From an uncultured Bacilli bacterium (GTDB lineage: Bacteria; Bacillota_I; Bacilli_A; RF39; UBA660), in contig CANQLF010000001.1 in the NCBI GenBank assembly GCA_947624635.1, positions 1-33,742 of the forward strand: a stretch of DNA of 33,742 nucleotides. Direction: 5' to 3'. This document shows positions 177-33,742 of this stretch, one piece after another. The notes under the pieces were generated by a model, which searched no databases, was not told where the DNA came from, and was given only the letters and a program-made list of their open reading frames with translations. Both the position numbers and the translations under genes were made by a program. Each line of letters opens with the position of its first letter. Within the stretch, counting starts at the first letter, position 1.

Positions 177-827
177 TTAATTATTATTTGGTAAGTTGGC
201 TGCTGCTTGATTTGCTTCAACTTTTATTGTTGCATTAAGAGTCAATCCTTGTAAATTATCTTGTGGTTCGTTATTTTCTTGAATCCATATTAATAAAATA
301 TATTTATCTTCGGATATTGGAGAAGTTATACTTATTGGGTTTGTATTTAATCTATAATCAGTCATATCCCCACCAAACGTACCATTATCTAATACAGAAT
401 ATGTTGTTGAGTCACCTTCTGTTACTTTAACTAGTGCCCAATTTATATCAGAAGGAATACCATTATCTTCTTCATCAATAAGATTATCTAATTTATCTTC
501 ACTAGTTGTCGTTAAATATATACTATAATATGCATCAATTGTTGTATCAGTAGGATCAACTGTAAATGATAATTGGGCAATATCATTATTTTTTAAAGCA
601 CTTTCTATATTTGCATCATCTCCATCAAAATCAGTTGGTTTAATATTTTTTTGACTTACTTCAGTTGATGTTACTGCTATATTCAATCTACCTGTTGTAA
701 TATCTTGTTGTATCGCCTCAGAAGTAGCTGAGAAATAAGCAAACGTAGCTCCTATTATTGCTACTAATAATGTTGCAATTGCAATTATAATTAATAAAAT
801 ATTGCTATCTTTTTTTTCTTTTTCCAT
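177..827 (-). CDS. Secreted TasA/camelysin-like protein, paralogue A, with SipW-type signal peptide
   Basis: ORF-track ORF 177..911 trimmed to the internal ATG at 827 (M29), which is preceded by GGAAGGAGA. N-terminus MEKEKKDSNILLIIIAIATLLVAIIGATFAYFSA fits the SipW-cognate signal-peptide pattern (K-rich n-region, TM helix, G-x-T-F-A-Y-F). The mature part has TasA-like landmarks (TTGRLNI, NIKPTDF, C-terminal TIKVEANQ). Family call is from pattern memory, not a search. Confidence 0.6.
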   Translation of the reverse strand: MEKEKKDSNILLIIIAIATLLVAIIGATFAYFSATSEAIQQDITTGRLNIAVTSTEVSQKNIKPTDFDGDDANIESALKNNDIAQLSFTVDPTDTTIDAYYSIYLTTTSEDKLDNLIDEEDNGIPSDINWALVKVTEGDSTTYSVLDNGTFGGDMTDYRLNTNPISITSPISEDKYILLIWIQENNEPQDNLQGLTLNATIKVEANQAAANLPNNN

Positions 828-883
828 ATATATTCTCCTTCCAAAAATTGCGGGATAAGTATTATCTGTAATCCTACTAAAAG

Positions 884-911
884 TATATAAAAATTCAATA
901 TCAAATGTCAA
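884..911 (-). promoter_or_regulatory. Sigma-A-type promoter of TasA-like gene A
   Basis: On the - strand: TTGACA (906-911), 16-nt spacer TTTGATATTGAATTTT, TATATA (884-889). Same architecture as the paralogue B promoter, with a roughly 50-nt leader. Confidence 0.5.
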
Positions 912-1023: not shown

Positions 1024-1728
1024 TTATGATCCAGCTGGTAAATTAGCTGCTGCTTGATTTGCTTCAACTTTTACTGTAGCATTAATGGTTAATTCTTGTA
1101 ATTCATCTTGAGGTTCATTATTTTCTTGAATCCATATTAATAAAACATATTTTTTTTCTGCTTTTGATGCTTGTTCTGTTAATGTTTTTACTTGTTCTGC
1201 AGTTATACTTTCAACTGAGCTACTTTCAGTATTATTAAGTAGTTTATGATTAGTCATGTCTCCACCAAAAGTTCCATCTTCTAATTTTGTATATGTTTTT
1301 GCTCCTTCAGCTTCTGTAACGCTAAGTAATGCCCAATTAATATCTTGTACTACACCATTTTTTGGTTCAGGTGCTGAATCTGCTTTAGGAAGATCTTCTA
1401 GATTTGTTGTAGTTAAATAAAAATTATAATACGCATCAATTGTCGTTCCAGTAAAATCAACAGTAATTGGTAGTTGCGCAACGTCTGTATTTTTTGTTAA
1501 TATTTCATCTGTTAAACCTTCAACTGTAAAATCTGTTGGTTTAATGTTTTCTTGAGAAACTGTTCCTGATGTTGCTTGAACTTTTAGTTCTCCTGTAGTA
1601 ATATCTTGTACATCTACTGTATCAGCTGCACTAAAGTATGCAAAAGTTGCACCTACTATTGCTACTAATAATGTTGCTGCTCCAATTATAGTTAATAGGA
1701 CATTATTATTTTTTCTTTCGTTTTCCAT
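1024..1728 (-). CDS. Secreted TasA/camelysin-like protein, paralogue B, with SipW-type signal peptide
   Basis: ORF 1024..1812 trimmed to the ATG at 1728 (M29), preceded by AGAAGGAGA. N-terminus MENERKNNNVLLTIIGAATLLVAIVGATFAYFSA. N- and C-terminal thirds are closely similar to paralogue A (KYVLLIWIQENNEPQDELQELTINATVKVEANQAAANLP). The middle is diverged, with an extra ~25-aa segment. Confidence 0.6.
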   Translation of the reverse strand: MENERKNNNVLLTIIGAATLLVAIVGATFAYFSAADTVDVQDITTGELKVQATSGTVSQENIKPTDFTVEGLTDEILTKNTDVAQLPITVDFTGTTIDAYYNFYLTTTNLEDLPKADSAPEPKNGVVQDINWALLSVTEAEGAKTYTKLEDGTFGGDMTNHKLLNNTESSSVESITAEQVKTLTEQASKAEKKYVLLIWIQENNEPQDELQELTINATVKVEANQAAANLPAGS

Positions 1729-1784
1729 ATAAATTCTCCTTCTAAAAATCGTGTTACAAATACTATTCACAATTCTAACAGAAG

Positions 1785-1812
1785 TATATAAAAATCCCCC
1801 CCCGGTTGTCAA
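1785..1812 (-). promoter_or_regulatory. Sigma-A-type promoter of TasA-like gene B with a G8 tract in the spacer
   Basis: On the - strand: TTGACA (1807-1812), ACC, GGGGGGGG (1796-1803), ATTTT, TATATA (1785-1790). Spacer is 16 nt. Confidence 0.5.
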
Positions 1813-1856
1813 GGGTTTTTAACAGTTTTTTTCAAAAGCAAGTAATTAATGTAAAG

Positions 1857-2921
1857 TTATTGTTCTTTTAATTTTCTTGTTTGGTCCTCCATAATTAGAG
1901 CTTCTATTATTTCGTCTAAGTCACCTTCCATTACTCTATCTAACTGTTTAGTTGTAAAACCAATTCTATGATCAGTTACACGGTTTTGTGGGTAGTTATA
2001 AGTTCTTATTTTTTCACTTCTATCTCCTGTACCTATTTTACTTCTTCTTTCTGCACCTTGTTCTTTTTCTTGTTCTTTCATTTTTAAATCATATAATCTT
2101 GTTTGAAGTATTTTAATTGCTTTTTCCTTATTTTTAATTTGACTTCTTTCTGTTTGTGAATAAACTATTATTCCTGTTGGAATATGTGTAAGTCTTACTG
2201 CAGAGTCTGTTGTATTAACTCCTTGCCCACCACAACCAGATGAACGTGTTATATCTACTCTTACTTCACTCATATCTAGTTTAAAATCTACTTCTTCAGC
2301 TTCAGGCATAACTAATACTGTAGCAGTTGAAGTATGAACTCTACCTTGTGTTTCTGTTGTAGGTACTCTTTGTACTCTGTGTGCGCCACTTTCATATTTT
2401 AATTTTGAATAAACATTATCACCTTTAACCATGAATTCAATTTGTGAGTATCCTCCTGATGCACCTTCTTCTTCGTTATATACATCTATTTTCCAATCTT
2501 GTTTTAGTGCATATTTAGAGTACATTCTAAATAGATCTCCAGCAAATATATTTGCTTCATCTCCACCTGCTGCCCCTCTTATTTCTATAATAACGTTTTT
2601 ACCATCATTAGGATCTTTAGGTAAAAGGATTATTTCTATCTCACTAAGTAATTGCTCTTTTTGTTCATTTAATTTTTTCAACTCTTCTTTAGCAAATTCT
2701 TCTAATTCTTTATCAGAAAGCATTTCATTAGCCGACGTTATATCTTCAATAATTCTTTTATATTTTTGATAAGCATTATAAGCATCAACTAATTCAGCTT
2801 GTTCTTTATTTAACTCTAAAGTTCTTTTAATATCACTTATAACTTCTGGTTTCATAAGTTCTTCAGTGATTTCATTATATTTTTGTTCAATACTTTCTAA
2901 TCTTTCTATCATAGGTGTCAC
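1857..2921 (-). CDS. prfA: Peptide chain release factor 1
   Basis: 354 aa. GGQ motif ([24 protein letters not shown]) and RF1-type P-x-T region ([17 protein letters not shown]). Typical RF1 length. Confidence 0.95.
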
Positions 2922-9885: not shown

Positions 9886-11472
9886 TTATTCATTATTCAT
9901 ATTTGAATTTATATTATCATTATTACTAGTAGTAATATTATCTATATTTGGTGTTGGACTATCATCTATTATATCTATTATTTCTTCATTTGATTCTTCA
10001 ATTGGCATTTCATTATTTTCTATATTGTTTTGTTGTTGAAAGTCAATGTTATCTTGTGTATTCAATTCTTTTGGTGGAGTATTATCAATATTATTTTTAT
10101 TGTTTTTATTTTTCTTTTTAATAAAATAGAATACTATTAAACCTATAATTATTAATAATTCTATAATAGTAAATACTACAAAGATATTAAAGCTATTATC
10201 TTTTTTATCATTATTAGTTTTAATATTAGTTTTAATGTTTGATTCTACATTTTTTATATTTGACATAGTTATTAAATAATTATTGCCATTTGTAGTAGAA
10301 AATTCTATATATCCATCTTTAACTATTAAATTATCTTCAATTTTTACTAATTTATTATTAACTTTATCATAGTAATATATATTTAGTTTATCACCATTAT
10401 TATATTTATCACCAACATATAATTTTATTTTTGTTCCTTCTGGTAAATTATTATTAATTATTATTTGTTTTCCATCTGCATAATTTGATAATTCGTTTAT
10501 TTCTTTTGATGGTTTTTTAATATCAATATTTAAGTTTAATTCTTTAGAATTATTTATTTTAGAACCATCTAATAAAATACTATAAAGTAATTTATTGTTA
10601 TTATCATAGTAATCAAAATTAATTTTTTTACCACTCTTTTTAATTTTATCTATATCGTTTGATGATAATTTAGTATTAGCATCTACTTTTATATTAGCTT
10701 CTTTAATATTAGAATCTTTTAATATATTATCTAAATCTTCTATAGTATAACTATCTTTTCTAGTTATTTTAATATTTATTTTGTTTTGTGTACCTGATTG
10801 TGAAGTAACAATTATTTCAATATTATTTTCCCCTACTTTTAATTCATGTGTTCCTGTACCTGTTATTTTTGCATTAATATCTTCTGCTACTGCTTTAATA
10901 TTAACTTTATCTGTACTATATGGAACTGTTAATGTGTAATTATTTTTATCAACTTTGTTTAAGTTGAAACCTTCGACTTCTAAACTAGTAAGATCTACAT
11001 TTGATGATTTATTATTTGTATTAGATGATGGTTTATTATTGTTTGTATTTGAGTTATTATTTGTACCACCTGTACTTGGTGATGGATTAGGTTTTGGTGT
11101 AGATTTTCCTACTACATTAACATTTATTGTATATGTTTTTCCTGTTAAATCTTCATCATCATAACTTGTAACGTCAGTTGTATATACTTTTATAGAAGTC
11201 GACCCAACACTATTTGCTTTAACAGTTATAGTTACACTATTCATATCTAAAAATTCACTAGTACTAGAGATACTTGCAATGCTAGAATTATTTGTTGAAA
11301 TATCAACTCTACCTGCACAATTATCTGCATTTATGGTAAATGTGGCACTACTACCTTTAGTTATAGTTAAGTTTGTTGTAGAAACACTTATACTACCTCT
11401 TGCAAGTACATTTATCGGTATCATTAGTAATATTAGTGCAAGGGTTAGAAATATATTTTTTAACTTCTTCAT
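9886..11472 (-). CDS. Surface protein: signal peptide, Ig-like beta-sandwich domain, N/S/T-rich linker, cadherin-like beta-sandwich domain, C-terminal TM anchor
   Basis: Start moved to the ATG at 11472 (MKKLKNIFLTLALILLMIPINVLA), preceded by AGGAGA. The segment LTSLEVEGFNLNKVDKNNYTLTVPYSTDKVNIKAVAEDINAKITGTGTHELKVGENNIEIIVTSQSGTQNKINIKITR fits the bacterial cadherin-like repeat pattern. TM helix FNIFVVFTIIELLIIIGLIVFYFI lies near the C-terminus. Confidence 0.6.
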   Translation of the reverse strand: MKKLKNIFLTLALILLMIPINVLARGSISVSTTNLTITKGSSATFTINADNCAGRVDISTNNSSIASISSTSEFLDMNSVTITVKANSVGSTSIKVYTTDVTSYDDEDLTGKTYTINVNVVGKSTPKPNPSPSTGGTNNNSNTNNNKPSSNTNNKSSNVDLTSLEVEGFNLNKVDKNNYTLTVPYSTDKVNIKAVAEDINAKITGTGTHELKVGENNIEIIVTSQSGTQNKINIKITRKDSYTIEDLDNILKDSNIKEANIKVDANTKLSSNDIDKIKKSGKKINFDYYDNNNKLLYSILLDGSKINNSKELNLNIDIKKPSKEINELSNYADGKQIIINNNLPEGTKIKLYVGDKYNNGDKLNIYYYDKVNNKLVKIEDNLIVKDGYIEFSTTNGNNYLITMSNIKNVESNIKTNIKTNNDKKDNSFNIFVVFTIIELLIIIGLIVFYFIKKKNKNNKNNIDNTPPKELNTQDNIDFQQQNNIENNEMPIEESNEEIIDIIDDSPTPNIDNITTSNNDNINSNMNNE

Positions 11473-11495
11473 AAAATTTTCTCCTATCATACTTA

Positions 11496-14400
11496 CTATT
11501 CAATAAACTCTGTTCCCATAATGTGTTTTCTAATCTTGATGTAATCTTTTGAAGTAATAACTTCATCTAGGTTAATATCTGCTGCATAGAATAATGTTTT
11601 ATCAGTTATTACTTCAGATCCCATTATATGCTTTCTAATTTTAATATAGTCTTTTGAAGTTATTTCACCATCCCCATTTATATCTCCTGCTAAAGCAATT
11701 TTATAATCAAAATCTTTTGTATTATTTATTTTAATTCTTACTATATCTTTTGTCTTAACATCATCTGAAGTAGTTAATTCATTACTTGATTCGTAATGAG
11801 AATATGCTATTTCATTAGCAAAATAATTAAATCTTTCAATTATTTTAGAAAAACTTTTATTTTTTGTTATTACTACATTATCTCTAATTGATAGTGGAGG
11901 ATTAACACCTCTTATACCATATATTTTTACTTTATTACTTCCCATTAAAGTTTCATAACCTTCAGCAGTTACCTTGTATTTAACTGTGTATTCACCAACA
12001 AACATGAACGAAGGTACCTTACTTCCATAGTCTGTATCATCAACGGAATACTCTATTTCATAATCATCTATATCCAATTTAATATCAAGTGAATGTAATT
12101 GACCATCATATATACCCTCATAATCTTTTGTATAATTAAATATTATATTGGTATTATATACATTAACTGATAATTCAATATTTTCAATCACTTCATAATT
12201 TTCAGTATCTTCTGGTGTATATTTTGCTAGAAATGTTTGTTCACCTACTTCTGTTATTGTTTGATTTTTATCCATCCACTCAAATCCTGTTGGTAAATCT
12301 ATATCACTTAATTTCATGTTTACTTTTGCTTTTAGATTATTTGGCTTTTCATAATTAGGTGTTGCTTTTGATACATTTACATTTACATTTTTTTCATAAG
12401 TTTCATTATATATATCATTAATTATTACTGTGTAATATGAATGATTAAATCTAAAACTATCTAAATTATTTATATATTTAATTGTATATCCATCTGTTAT
12501 AGTTTTACTATTAGTTTCTTCTTTATATTCGTTATCTTTATTATATCCTTTTTCAAAATTTAAAGATATTGAACTTATGTCACTGCTAGTAACTTTTTCA
12601 AATGCTTTATATGATGTTTTATTTGCATTAATAGTTATTTCTGGATTTAAGGTTTCATATTTTATTTTATTATTTTTTGCATATTCTTTTGCATAAGCAT
12701 CACTGTATGTATAAATTGTTAAATCTATTTTTTCTTGTTGTGTATTTTTATCAAAAGAATTTGTAGCTATTGAATCGACTGATCTTGGAATATAAACTTC
12801 TTTTAATTTTTTACAAGCATAAAAAGCATGATCTTTAATTTCTTTAACTTTTTTTGGAATAATAATACTATTTATACCACTATTTACAAATGCCATTGCA
12901 TTTATTTGTTCAATTGATTCTGGTAAATTAACCGTTTCAAGATTTTCACAATTAAAGAAGGTATTGGATTCAATTGTTTTAACACCATCTGGAATATCAA
13001 TACTCTTAATATTAGTTCCAGAAAAAGCATTACTGCCTATATATGTAATACTTTCAGGTATATTTATATGTTCAAGTTTAGAACATCCAGAGAAAGCACC
13101 ATTTTCTATTCTAGTAATTTTTTCTGCTAATTTAATGTTATCCAAGAATTCACAACCTGAAAAAGCTTGAGAACCAATTTTAGAAATCACACCATTAAAT
13201 GTCGTAAGTTTGTAATTATACATAAAAGCATTTTCATTAATTTCTATTTCTGGACTGTTTATTATTACTTTTTCTAATGTAGATTTTGAATCTTGTGATA
13301 ATATTTTTTCAGCACGAAAAACATTTTTTCCAATTTTAGATATTGTTTTTGGTAAATTTATAATTTTAAAGTATTCAAAATCTTTTGAATTTTTAAACAT
13401 ATCTGAACTACTACTTGATGTTGAATCTGCTAATGATACTACATTATATTCGTTAATTGTTTCAGGAAAATATAAACTAAGATATTTTTGATTATTATCT
13501 TTGTAATGTGTTAATTCTATATTAGATGAATCAAGAATATTATATTCCCAGCCTACATCTTCAAATCTCGGATTTGTTATATTAAAGGCTTCCGTTAAAC
13601 CATCATATTTAATTGTTACAGTTTGTTGGGTATTACTATTTGGATTATATCCTTCTATTTCTATATTCTCTAATTTACCCAAAGTCCTTGTTATTTTTCT
13701 ACCGTCATTATAGTGAATTAAAATTTCTGTTGGAAATAAATTATTTACACTATAATAATTATAGTCTGTTGTTTTAATGTTAGTTACTTCTATTTTAGTT
13801 ATTTCAGTTGCACTTTTAGAAAATATACCATATTCATCACATTCATCTTCTTGACTATTATCACAAAATTTAGCATTATTAAATGAGATTAATCCATATC
13901 CATAGTATTCATCCCATCCTTCATCACCTAAATCTTGAGCATATATTTTTAATAATTCGATTGCATCATCAATTGTAAGGTCTTTATTAAGTGATTTTAA
14001 AATTGCTACTGAACTTACTGCATGTGGTGTAGCCATAGAAGTTCCACTCATTTTTCCATTAATACTTTCTATATCTGTTCCAGGGGCAGTAAAAGTTATA
14101 TATCTTCCATAATTTGAAAAATCAGATTTATTTAAAGACGAATCTACTGAAGAAATAGCAATTGTAGTATCAAGAGCTGCAGGATATGATTTATCAGATG
14201 TGCTTTCATTACCTGCTGCAGCAACACTTATTATATTTTGTTCTTTTGCTGCTTCTATTGCACTATCAAGTGCTAAATCGTTTCTTTCTGAGCCAAAGCT
14301 CATGTTAATAACATCTGCTTTTTTGTCTTGAACTATATAATTTACTGCTGCTACTATTTTAACTGTATCAATAGATTTATCATCTGATACTTTAACTGGT

Positions 14401-15056
14401 AAAATTTTAACGTTATTTGGTGTACTTTCAGCAATTGTTCCAGCTATATGTGTACCATGTCCATAATTATCAAACATATCACTATCTGAAGTTAGTATAT
14501 TATAAGTTTTTTCTATTTTTCCTGAATAATTTTCATTAAATAAATCCATATCACAACCTGTATCTATTATTGCTACTGTAATATCATTTAATTTTTGTGA
14601 ATTAGCAAATTCAATTGCATCATCTAGTCCCATTTTTTCTACTCCCCAAGAATTATAATTTCCATCTACATTTGAAAAAGTATAAGTTATATTTTCTTGT
14701 ACAATAATAGAAGGATCATTTTTTAATTTATTAAATGCTTTATCTTTATTTTTCAAATTGTCATATTGTAGGATATATTGATTATTAGGAGCATCAATTA
14801 TTTTTTTAGCTCCGTATGTTTCTTTTAATTTTTCTTCAGATATTACAATTAATATATTGTCTTTTTCATCTTCTTTTATTTCTGATACTTCTTTAAAATA
14901 ATTATTCATAAATTCTTTTGGTAATTTTGAAATATTTATTAGGTCATCAGTTAGTTTATTATTATTTAATAATTTATGTTTAAAATAAAAGCAACAAGTT
15001 ATTGAACCAATTAAAAAGATTACTAAAAAGGCACTGATATACAATCTTTTTTTCAT
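11496..15056 (-). CDS. Large secreted subtilisin-family (S8) serine protease with BspA-type leucine-rich repeats, Ig-like modules and a C-terminal dockerin
   Basis: 1186 aa. S8 catalytic triad contexts: AIIDTGCD (Asp), HGTHIAGTIA (His), GTSMATPHAV (Ser). LRR_5-like repeats, e.g. FSGCSKLEHINIPESITYIGSNAFSG. Duplicated Ca-binding dockerin segments GDINGDGEITSKDYIKIRKHIMG and ADINLDEVITSKDYIKIRKHIMG at the C-terminus (about nt 11499-11714). Confidence 0.85.
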   Translation of the reverse strand: MKKRLYISAFLVIFLIGSITCCFYFKHKLLNNNKLTDDLINISKLPKEFMNNYFKEVSEIKEDEKDNILIVISEEKLKETYGAKKIIDAPNNQYILQYDNLKNKDKAFNKLKNDPSIIVQENITYTFSNVDGNYNSWGVEKMGLDDAIEFANSQKLNDITVAIIDTGCDMDLFNENYSGKIEKTYNILTSDSDMFDNYGHGTHIAGTIAESTPNNVKILPVKVSDDKSIDTVKIVAAVNYIVQDKKADVINMSFGSERNDLALDSAIEAAKEQNIISVAAAGNESTSDKSYPAALDTTIAISSVDSSLNKSDFSNYGRYITFTAPGTDIESINGKMSGTSMATPHAVSSVAILKSLNKDLTIDDAIELLKIYAQDLGDEGWDEYYGYGLISFNNAKFCDNSQEDECDEYGIFSKSATEITKIEVTNIKTTDYNYYSVNNLFPTEILIHYNDGRKITRTLGKLENIEIEGYNPNSNTQQTVTIKYDGLTEAFNITNPRFEDVGWEYNILDSSNIELTHYKDNNQKYLSLYFPETINEYNVVSLADSTSSSSSDMFKNSKDFEYFKIINLPKTISKIGKNVFRAEKILSQDSKSTLEKVIINSPEIEINENAFMYNYKLTTFNGVISKIGSQAFSGCEFLDNIKLAEKITRIENGAFSGCSKLEHINIPESITYIGSNAFSGTNIKSIDIPDGVKTIESNTFFNCENLETVNLPESIEQINAMAFVNSGINSIIIPKKVKEIKDHAFYACKKLKEVYIPRSVDSIATNSFDKNTQQEKIDLTIYTYSDAYAKEYAKNNKIKYETLNPEITINANKTSYKAFEKVTSSDISSISLNFEKGYNKDNEYKEETNSKTITDGYTIKYINNLDSFRFNHSYYTVIINDIYNETYEKNVNVNVSKATPNYEKPNNLKAKVNMKLSDIDLPTGFEWMDKNQTITEVGEQTFLAKYTPEDTENYEVIENIELSVNVYNTNIIFNYTKDYEGIYDGQLHSLDIKLDIDDYEIEYSVDDTDYGSKVPSFMFVGEYTVKYKVTAEGYETLMGSNKVKIYGIRGVNPPLSIRDNVVITKNKSFSKIIERFNYFANEIAYSHYESSNELTTSDDVKTKDIVRIKINNTKDFDYKIALAGDINGDGEITSKDYIKIRKHIMGSEVITDKTLFYAADINLDEVITSKDYIKIRKHIMGTEFIE

Positions 15057-23302: not shown

Positions 23303-23349
23303 TTTTGCATACACCTCCATTACTAAAAAGTTTTTCGAACGCATTTATA

Positions 23350-23377
23350 ATTATAAGGAAATATAATATTTTGTCAA
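23350..23377 (-). promoter_or_regulatory. rpmH promoter
   Basis: On the - strand: TTGACA (23372-23377), 16 nt, TATAAT (23350-23355). Confidence 0.6.
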
Positions 23378-23539: not shown

Positions 23540-23823
23540 AAATCCACAGGTATCTGTGGAAAACTATACTATATTTTTATAGTTTTTATAGAGTTTTCCA
23601 CAGTTTCAACAGCTATGTTGATAAATTTTACCACAAGTGTGTTTAATTTATCAACAAGAATGTGTATAATTTAATATTTATATTATAAAATATTAAATTT
23701 TGCTGTGGAAAAGTCTGTGAATATTAAATTTTCTTTAATTTTTTTCATATTTTTGTTTTCTTTTCAACAGTTTTAGTTTAAAATATTAATTAGATTGGAA
23801 TACTTTATTGGAGGTGATTGGTT

Positions 23824-25191: not shown

Positions 25192-25290
25192 TGTGGATAA
25201 GAAGAGAATTTTCGACAACTTTTGCACAACTAAAAATATAAAAATAGTTCATTTTTAGGTTATTTTTTTAAGTTATCCACAGTTTCCACA
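25192..25290. promoter_or_regulatory. oriC part II: DnaA boxes in the dnaA-dnaN spacer
   Basis: Perfect TTATCCACA at 25192-25200 (- strand, as TGTGGATAA) and at 25273-25281 (+). The latter is directly followed by GTTTCCACA at 25282-25290. Confidence 0.8.
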
Positions 25291-26610: not shown

Positions 26611-27051
26611 ATGAATTGCTACGAAATAAATGAGGAAACATTAGCTATATTACCTTATGGAGATACACAAAGTAAAATAATTGAAAAATATAAGGAATTT
26701 ATAGTTAATAAAACTCCTTATGAAATTATAACTTACAGTTGTTTATATTTTGGCAGTTCCTATGAAGGAAGAATTTCAGCAACTAAGTACCTTCTTGGAA
26801 TATCATATAAATCACCAATTGTAATAGAAGAATCTCGCAATTTAATTTTCTTTCCAACAAACTCGCCAAAATTACAAGACTGTAGCTGGATTTCTTTGAA
26901 AAGTATAGTAGACTATAAGAGAAATAATAGTAAATCAATGATATTATTTGATAATAACGTTAGATTACCACTTGATATTTCTTATGGTTCTCTAGAAAAT
27001 CAAATTATGAGAGCTTCTAGGTTAGACTCTATGTTAAGAAACAACAGATAA
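26611..27051 (+). CDS. comK: ComK-family protein (competence transcription factor-like), short form
   Basis: 146 aa. Aligns by eye with B. subtilis and S. aureus ComK landmarks: AILPYGD..SKIIEK, SCLYFGSSYEGR, GISYKSPIVIE, IFFPTNSP, CSWISL, ISYGSLENQ. GGGGGTGA RBS. Confidence 0.65.
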   Translation: MNCYEINEETLAILPYGDTQSKIIEKYKEFIVNKTPYEIITYSCLYFGSSYEGRISATKYLLGISYKSPIVIEESRNLIFFPTNSPKLQDCSWISLKSIVDYKRNNSKSMILFDNNVRLPLDISYGSLENQIMRASRLDSMLRNNR

Positions 27052-33083: not shown

Positions 33084-33087
33084 ATTA

Positions 33088-33167
33088 GTGCACAACAAAT
33101 ATGTTGGAACCAGGTCAGAATTGGAAGATAGCAGCCTTAACAACCTCTGTTTGTGTGTGCTTTTTTT
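33088..33167 (+). ncRNA. ffs: Signal recognition particle RNA, short (4.5S-like) form
   Basis: Domain IV signature CCAGGTCAGAATTGGAAGATAGCAGCC, including a GGAA tetraloop closed by AUU/GAU and the conserved AGCAGCC strand. The 5' GTGCACAACAAA pairs with the 3' TTTGTGTGTGC and is followed by T7. Ends uncertain by a few nt. Confidence 0.75.
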
Positions 33168-33179
33168 ATGGTGATGTTT

Positions 33180-33608
33180 ATGAATAATAAATTTTTGAAT
33201 GAAATAATTAAATTAGCAGAAAAAGCTGAGAAAAATAATTGCGTTCCAGTAGGTGCAATTGTAGTTAAAGATAATAAGATAATTAGTAAAGGCTATAATA
33301 AGAAAGAAAAAACTAACAATCCTATGGATCATGCAGAAATAATTGCAATTAAAAAAGCTTCTAAGAAAATTAAAAATTGGAGGATGCCAGATTGTGAAAT
33401 TTATGTAACGATGAAACCATGTGCTATGTGTCAAAAAGTGATTGCTGAAAGTAGAATAATGAAAGTACACTACTTAATTGATAATAAAAAACAATCAAGC
33501 ACAACAAATAATATTTTAAATAAAATAAATATGCAAAAAGAAAACGAACGTATATATGAAATAAATTATACTAAAATAATAACAAATTTTTTTAAAAAAA
33601 GACGATAA
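33180..33608 (+). CDS. tadA: tRNA-specific adenosine deaminase (CDA-fold zinc deaminase)
   Basis: Zinc-binding motifs DHAEIIAIKKA (HAE) and PCAMCQKVI (PCxxC). Start chosen at the ATG at 33180 (MNNKFLNEI), 4 nt after GGTGAT. The ORF-track start at 33153 lies inside the SRP RNA. ATGs at 33168 and 33174 are also possible. Confidence 0.8.
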   Translation: MNNKFLNEIIKLAEKAEKNNCVPVGAIVVKDNKIISKGYNKKEKTNNPMDHAEIIAIKKASKKIKNWRMPDCEIYVTMKPCAMCQKVIAESRIMKVHYLIDNKKQSSTTNNILNKINMQKENERIYEINYTKIITNFFKKRR

Positions 33609-33692
33609 AATTATATTTATTAAAAGTTAACATGATATAATAACAAGAGATTCAAACTGATATAAAATTTTCACAAACCTGTTGATAAGAGC

Positions 33693-33721
33693 TTGACTTC
33701 GGGGGGGGGTTAATTTATAAT
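33693..33721 (+). promoter_or_regulatory. Near-consensus sigma-A promoter with a G9 tract in the spacer, driving a gene beyond the window edge
   Basis: TTGACT (33693-33698), TC, GGGGGGGGG (33701-33709), TTAATT, TATAAT (33716-33721). Spacer is exactly 17 nt. Confidence 0.6.
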
Positions 33722-33742
33722 AAAATTAAGGCTAGTGGATAA

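Follow-up and report, generated by a model that had tools for sequence, protein, structure and literature searches.

A G8 tract in the promoter spacer of a TasA-like gene is a candidate slippage-prone expression element in an uncultured gut Bacilli lineage

The window analysed here is a whole metagenome contig of 33,742 bp with 26.2% GC, which originates from an uncultured gut Bacilli or 'Mollicutes-like' lineage with a reduced, AT-rich genome. It includes the replication origin region (Table 1), and at its left end the minus strand carries prfA followed by two tandem paralogues, called gene B and gene A here. In a prfA-anchored scan of species genomes, the closest prfA matches were found in Bacilli MAGs of the human, goat and rabbit gut at 81-83% identity, and the region after prfA in the related genomes is non-syntenic, containing prmC or other genes and no G tract. 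The DnaA-box clusters around dnaA have the predicted layout of a typical bipartite Firmicute oriC, and the dnaA-dnaN spacer (25192-25281) contains two perfect TTATCCACA boxes. The sole 12/12 consensus promoter of the window (TTGACA-N16-TATAAT, 23348-23377 on the minus strand, with the -35 at 23377) adjoins the DnaA-box-like cluster upstream of dnaA (23555-23712) and has the strand and side expected for rpmH. We also noticed a full-length ComK homologue (Pfam E=6e-45) between dnaN and recF at 26611-27051 on the plus strand, and two large putative surface proteins encoded on the minus strand within 9886-15056, one being an S8 subtilase of 1186 aa that combines BspA-type leucine-rich repeats with a C-terminal dockerin, and the other a 534-aa protein with a cadherin-like domain.

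Table 1 Positions of the genes, promoter elements and neighbouring motifs in the window
Feature	Position	Strand	Details
Gene A	177..827	-	216-aa paralogue, 57% identical to gene B
Gene A promoter (paralogous)	882..911	-	TTGACA (911-906), TTTGATATTGAATTTT, TATATA (889-884), CT; without tract
Gene B	1024..1728	-	234 aa, exported TasA-like; RBS AGGAG 1740-1736, ATG at 1728
Gene B -10 candidates, overlapping	1783..1790	-	TATATA 1790-1785 (16-nt spacer); TATACT 1788-1783 (18-nt spacer)
ATTTT between G8 and -10	1795-1791	-	
G8 homopolymer (plus strand C8)	1796..1803	-	spacer positions 4-11
ACC between gene B -35 and tract	1806-1804	-	
Gene B -35 hexamer TTGACA	1807..1812	-	6/6 consensus match; A-rich stretch GAAAAAAACTGTTAAAAACCC upstream
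Weak hairpin UAAAAACCCUU...GGGGG-A-UUUUUA using the G tract	1790..1821	-	from terminator scan; possible leaky prfA terminator
prfA (release factor 1)	1857..2921	-	PCRF and RF-1 domains; ends 45 nt upstream of gene B -35
Origin-region genes rnpA, yidC, jag, mnmE, mnmG, rsmG, parB		-	
Origin-region genes dnaA, dnaN, comK, recF, gyrB, gyrA, SRP RNA, tadA		+	
DnaA-box-like TTATCAACA (TGTTGATAA)	33680..33688	-	4 nt upstream of G9-promoter -35; aligned L088 position is TGTGGACAG
G9 promoter	33693..33721	+	TTGACT (33693-98)-TC-G9 (33701-33709)-TTAATT-TATAAT (33716-21), 17-nt spacer
DnaA-box-like TTATCCACT (AGTGGATAA)	33734..33742	-	contig end, just past predicted G9 transcript start; AGTGGATAA fully conserved in L088

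The products of genes B and A have a SipW-type signal peptide (NCBIfam TIGR04088, cutoff 19), scoring 26.8 and 25.3 bits, respectively. Both proteins also barely pass the Pfam Peptidase_M73 model (PF12389), and only with the N-terminus; in gene B the match is restricted to residues 11-69, at 23.0 bits versus the 22.5 cutoff. The AlphaFold model of the gene B protein, built from 38 homologues, has a pLDDT of 75, and its only significant PDB match is the TasA fibre 8aur_A (E=7e-4, TM 0.40, 13% identity). A TasA-like exported fibre subunit is a reasonable reading of this modelled product, and a firm family assignment is not warranted. The gene B protein is a singleton among 5.8 billion proteins, no homologue besides gene A exceeds 54% identity, and an exact-protein lookup returned no contig with this protein or with its nearest outside homologue, P0003. 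The TasA-like clusters of closer relatives (L081-L085) have TTGCAT-N17-TAATAT promoters without a G tract.

The original prediction described a G8 homopolymer within a promoter of the form TTGACA-ACC-G8-ATTTT-TATATA, and we found this anatomy to be exact on the minus strand at 1812-1785; read on to 1783, the strand is TTGACA-ACC-G8-ATTTT-TATATAct. The view that the tract occupies the spacer of a predicted near-consensus promoter, driving a gene for an exported TasA-like protein, is supported. This promoter matches the consensus at 11 of 12 positions in an arrangement common to paralogue A, with two possible -10 registers (16 or 18 nt). TATATA does not have the conserved final T of the -10 element, which the overlapping TATACT has, and a consensus scan pairs TTGACA with TATACT at an 18-nt spacer in both gene A and gene B. 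Because TATACT contains the conserved last-position T and is the hexamer picked by the scan, the -10 of gene B is probably TATACT at 18 nt rather than TATATA at 16 nt. The 16-nt spacer proposed earlier is correct as the distance to TATATA, with the 18-nt distance to TATACT being the likelier spacing. The gene A promoter was confirmed to have an equal 16-nt distance between TTGACA and TATATA (911-884) and an AT-rich spacer with conserved flanks, and it also has overlapping TATATA and TATACT with a 2-nt offset (882-889, minus strand). The paired -10 candidates in genes A and B would buffer expression against spacer changes of +/-2 nt. In a BLAST search, neither the gene B promoter nor the contig end proved to be repeated elsewhere in the window.

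The occurrence of the tract in this DNA is extremely non-random. Just two G/C runs of at least 6 are present in the 33.7 kb, the G8 of gene B and a G9 near the right end of the contig, and both lie inside promoter spacers, which bears out the rarity that had been noted by eye. Overlapping G8 matches number three in the window, compared with 0.03 +/- 0.22 expected from dinucleotide shuffles. Counting both strands, the window has no more than six places where 11 or more of the 12 promoter consensus positions are matched, and two of the six hold both tracts. The spacers of these near-consensus promoters make up 0.15% of strand-positions, and the tracts would coincide with them by chance with a probability of at most about 1e-5. 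Related low-GC DNA totalling 331 kb contains a single further run of at least 8, which belongs to the L088 orthologue of the G9 promoter.

The G9 promoter follows tadA, and 21 nt separate its -10 from the contig end. A locus in another assembly, L088, is colinear with it (TadA 80% identical, SRP RNA upstream) and contains the orthologous promoter TTGACT-TC-G8-CCATTA-TATAAT with a 16-nt spacer. The tract is G9 here and G8 in L088 and the neighbouring spacer bases have diverged; therefore, the tract was kept with a one-G difference. DnaA-box-like 9-mers on both sides of the promoter align between the two contigs (window 33680-33742; L088 1005-1086). Relatives identified through TadA mostly have dnaX 35-55 nt downstream of tadA, and in L086, where dnaX comes directly after tadA, GGTGGATAA precedes the dnaX ATG. 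The G9 promoter occupies the place of this tight tadA-dnaX junction. The window contig and the L088 contig both end 33-52 nt past the tract, no tRNA is present, and no Rfam family was found downstream of the G9 promoter. The contigs of the three closest DnaX homologues likewise have tadA directly followed by dnaX and come from a different organism. Possible targets are an rRNA operon, dnaX with a long leader, or a repeated gene family, and the promoter may drive a housekeeping gene. That the second tract switches a surface structure, as suggested before, is unsupported: the promoter has DnaA-box-like flanks, follows tadA where relatives have dnaX, and has its target beyond the contig end. It looks DnaA-regulated rather than surface-related, and because its target is possibly housekeeping, it does not qualify as another switch of surface structures. 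In the same region, the SRP RNA (33084-33169, plus strand, 54 bits) overlaps the listed GTG start of the tadA ORF (33153-33608, plus strand), and translation of tadA probably begins at the ATG at 33180.

Promoters of this type were also found outside the window. One metagenome scan with the pattern TTGACWWCSGGGGGGGN{4,10}TATAWW gave 66 loci, corresponding to 54 distinct promoter sequences. The tract lengths of these 54 are G7 in 14, G8 in 11, G9 in 20, G10 in 6, G11 in 1 and G12 in 2, a non-geometric distribution with its peak at G9, and the distance from the -35 to the best -10 is between 14 and 21 nt, with only about half of the promoters within 16-18 nt. A perfect TATAAT is present in 32 of the 39 promoters with G8 or more, compared with about one quarter expected from the pattern alone; many promoters of the class have a TGn extended -10, and most are located 20-180 nt upstream of a co-oriented ORF. 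Because of the TATAAT enrichment, the frequent extended -10 and the co-oriented ORF downstream, the metagenome loci are regarded as behaving like real promoters. A strand-asymmetry comparison on viral contigs gave 0 hits for the G-tract and the C-tract pattern alike. The base after the tract is T in 25 of 37 cases, and the hosts of the module range from 27% to 67% GC. Among unselected runs of G8 or more in the class loci, three of seven again lie within promoter spacers.

An N-terminal signal or membrane (hydrophobic) segment was found in 25 of 33 downstream proteins at G8 or longer and in 3 of 11 at G7 (Fisher p=0.009), and these sequences suggest that the G-tract design is common before exported proteins. 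The downstream proteins include a TIGR04088 SipW-type protein in L147, lipoproteins and collagen-repeat proteins, and promoter, leader and signal peptide are common to the members of L101/L115/L132 and to those of five ERZ1643251 contigs. The closest look-alike outside the window is on the low-GC contig L133, with TTGACA-ACC-G8-TGATT-TATATAAT, i.e. TTGACAACC-G8, and a perfect TATAAT at 18 nt. Another low-GC contig, L140, has TTGACAACC-G9 and is near-identical to the gene B promoter. The design shared by the two, TTGACAACC-G8/G9-N5-TATATAAT, precedes exported proteins similar to that of gene B, which have a K/N-rich and then hydrophobic N-terminus as gene B does. The tract had been described as a specific acquisition in one of the two paralogues; this change is not polarisable, because L133 and L140 carry TTGACAACC-G8/G9 before similar genes, and for the same reason the tract may have been lost from copy A.

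The non-random promoter-tract design of the original prediction thus recurs elsewhere, from G8 to G12, with non-optimal spacers in half of the cases and mostly before exported proteins. Recurring tracts of variable length in front of exported proteins look like the signature of slippage-controlled contingency promoters. A spread of spacers from 14 to 21 nt is unusual for functional sigma-70-type promoters and is expected if the tracts drift and many copies are caught in a weak state.

Several arrangements within this class were observed. Five contigs of ERZ1643251 (31-35% GC) contain the cassette TTGACAACG10TATTCATGTATAAT with a 20-nt spacer and G10 in all copies (L106 6337-6368, L108 1438-1469 on the minus strand, L117 5045-5076, L130 1338-1369, and L137 2092-2123 on the minus strand). 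The cassette heads different exported proteins, two pairs of which have common N-termini, and because the cassette is common and these N-termini are shared, the five represent a multigene family with identical G10 tracts. Tandem G-tract promoters 74 nt apart, CCCTTGAC-G9-TAACATGGTATACT and then TTGACAAC-G8/9-...TATAAT, are found in L109 (minus strand, about 5808 and 5882 of the reverse complement) and L122 (6588 and 6662), within a conserved module followed by surface-protein genes that differ from case to case; L098 shares its downstream gene with L109 and has a different upstream sequence. For the upstream modules common to L109, L122, L152 and L098, an origin by recombination or a shufflon is conceivable. 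In L091, L096, L097, L114, L120 and L156 (53-55% GC), a G7 in a 17-nt spacer lies upstream of a trigger-factor-like gene. This G7 is constant across several sequence variants and is located within the inverted repeat ACAACC-G5-GGTTGT, and because of this embedding the tract is suggestive of an operator rather than a slippage switch.

We hold with moderate confidence that the sigma-A-type promoter of gene B has in its G8 a spacer element prone to slippage, by which the exported TasA-like subunit would be tuned relative to the invariant paralogue A. Gains and losses of G during replication would shift the distance from TTGACA to the -10 and thereby change the promoter strength in a heritable and reversible manner. 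If TATACT serves as the -10, the optimal 17-nt spacer would come with G7, the sub-optimal 18-nt spacer with G8, and a weaker promoter with G9 or more. Owing to the 2-nt offset between TATATA and TATACT, every tract length from G6 to G10 would leave one hexamer or both at 16-18 nt from the -35. Because the overlapping hexamers would tolerate this range, we expect the tract length to act as a graded dial rather than as a sharp ON/OFF switch; the idea of an ON/OFF or graded switch by slippage is therefore retained in its graded part, and a sharp ON/OFF response is unsupported given the overlapping -10s. Paralogue A, with its non-repetitive spacer, would be expressed invariantly, and the population would vary in its B:A ratio and, as a consequence, in fibre composition or antigenicity.

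The position and rarity of the tract, the quality of the promoter, the exported product and the recurrence elsewhere with varying lengths are directly established. We infer that the tract length varies in the source population and that expression follows it. The ordinary promoters of the TasA-like clusters in L081-L085 count against this reading, as does the tolerance of G6 to G10 that the two overlapping -10 hexamers would confer. In addition, a G tract in a spacer is by itself no proof of a contingency switch, because the other tract of the window is in a DnaA-box-flanked, possibly housekeeping promoter. Identical lengths at the six metagenome loci sampled twice and the constant G10 of the five ERZ1643251 paralogues count against hypermutability; they lack the scatter expected of very unstable tracts, though the resampled populations may coincide.

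The same invariance would fit an explanation in which the tract is a fixed cis-element, either a stiff A-form-like spacer or the site of an unknown regulator, kept in a conserved module TTGAC[A/T]-[A/T]C-G8-12-T...TATAAT for certain strongly regulated genes. The position of the tract within the spacer is conserved between orthologous promoters whose neighbouring bases have diverged, the module is present over the full GC range given above with a preference for T after the tract, the five G10 copies all have the 20-nt spacer, and the G9 promoter appears DnaA-regulated, not surface-related. We nevertheless regard a fixed element as unlikely. To our knowledge, there is no factor that reads poly-G in sigma-A spacers, and tracts from G8 to G12 in spacers of 14-21 nt are hard to square with a fixed geometry. 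Moreover, paralogue A has an unrelated AT-rich spacer of equal length, and the strong bias towards exported proteins is a hallmark of contingency loci. Equally doubtful, in our estimation, is a broader proposal that these promoters represent a widespread and undescribed cassette, TTGAC[A/T]-[A/T]C-G8-12-T...(TGn)TATAAT, in uncultured Firmicutes-like bacteria of 27% to 67% GC. Such a cassette would head exported families of TasA/SipW-type, lipoprotein, collagen-repeat and pilin-like proteins, sometimes in tandem (L109, L122) or in common to five paralogues (ERZ1643251), as well as one DnaA-box-flanked promoter by replication genes. Because of this last promoter, it is thinkable that the G tract has a role beyond its length, for example by linking expression to DNA topology or replication, either through its structure or through a regulator that reads it.

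Two further explanations concern whether the tract belongs to the promoter at all. The terminator scan flags CCCTTG-ACAAC-CGGGGG followed by GGGATTTTTA, and no alternative hairpin exists between the prfA stop (1857) and the promoter, as would be the case if the tract were mainly the 3' arm of an intrinsic prfA terminator (A5-CCCUU...GGGGG-A-U5) that overlaps the gene B promoter incidentally. We consider this highly improbable, since the fold reaches only -8.6 kcal/mol with a z-score of +0.88 and 164 of 200 shuffles fold at least as well. Genes A and B themselves have terminators with longer, AT-rich hairpins, and the tracts of the G9 promoter, L088, L133, L140 and other tract promoters have no C-run partner upstream. 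That the tract is a neutral accident, or an error of the consensus or the assembly, and has no effect on regulation is scarcely more credible. Homopolymer counts may be off by one in a metagenome assembly, and both contigs with the second tract end shortly past it. Chance, however, accounts for 0.03 G8 matches, both tracts fall within the small fraction of strand-positions taken up by near-consensus spacers, and the same design is present in independent assemblies (L088, L133, L140).

With slippage as the preferred reading, the gene B tract is a probable instance of a well-known type of switch in a new lineage and a new gene family. If the tract varies, classical repeat phase variation would extend to TasA-type biofilm or adhesion fibres and to an uncultured, reduced-genome lineage of gut Bacilli. 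It would also mean that commensals diversify surface fibres stochastically, which bears on phage and immune escape and on metagenomic 'strain' variation. Because the survey suggests that the design is common before exported proteins, promoters with a G tract in the spacer could be used to find contingency genes in MAGs. Since the mechanism itself is textbook, the conceptual advance is modest; the importance would be somewhat higher if the wider cassette is a general undescribed feature of uncultured Firmicutes.

Repeat-mediated phase variation is known mainly from pathogens such as Neisseria, Treponema, Mycoplasma and Campylobacter. Tracts in promoter spacers are found in porA (poly-G) and opc (poly-C) of Neisseria meningitidis, in the vlp genes of Mycoplasma hyorhinis (poly-A) and in hifA/B of Haemophilus influenzae (TA repeats), where the spacer repeat sets the promoter strength of surface antigens via slipped-strand mispairing. 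The conserved cassette of promoter, leader and signal peptide in the Mycoplasma vlp genes resembles the ERZ1643251 and L101/L115/L132 families. In contrast to gene B, these systems belong to other phyla and have other products, and their ON, intermediate and OFF states were measured. In their likely product class and in having paralogous major and minor subunits, genes A and B resemble tapA-sipW-tasA of Bacillus subtilis and tasA/calY of B. cereus, whose products have a SipW-type signal peptide and a TasA-like fibre fold. Regulation of the Bacillus genes depends on SinR, AbrB and RemA and involves no repeat tract, whereas gene B has one. No sipW was found among the 13 ORFs scanned of the 33.7-kb contig.

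In Bifidobacterium breve, the pilus tract lies in the coding region and acts as a frameshift switch, unlike the promoter-spacer tract at gene B. The likeness to gene B is that of a gut commensal in which slippage at a G homopolymer during replication turns a fibre or pilus on and off; a replication-slippage ON/OFF switch is reported for the expression of the sortase-dependent pilus (PMC9187656). The closest parallel in promoter architecture is in Treponema pallidum, where tp0126, encoding an OmpW homologue, has a poly-G between the -35 and the -10 and is transcribed best at a 17-nt spacer, and the poly-G promoter tracts of tpr genes (tprL) vary from 7 to 11 G within isolates (PMC7864442). What gene B has in common with tp0126 and tprE/G/J/L is a poly-G of about 7-11 nt within the sigma-70-type promoter of a protein that is exported or located at the surface. 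The Treponema tract was validated experimentally in a spirochaete pathogen, whereas the gene B tract is a candidate, before the gene of a SipW/TasA-type subunit in uncultured low-GC gut Bacilli, and, unlike in Treponema, a non-variable paralogous promoter adjoins it.
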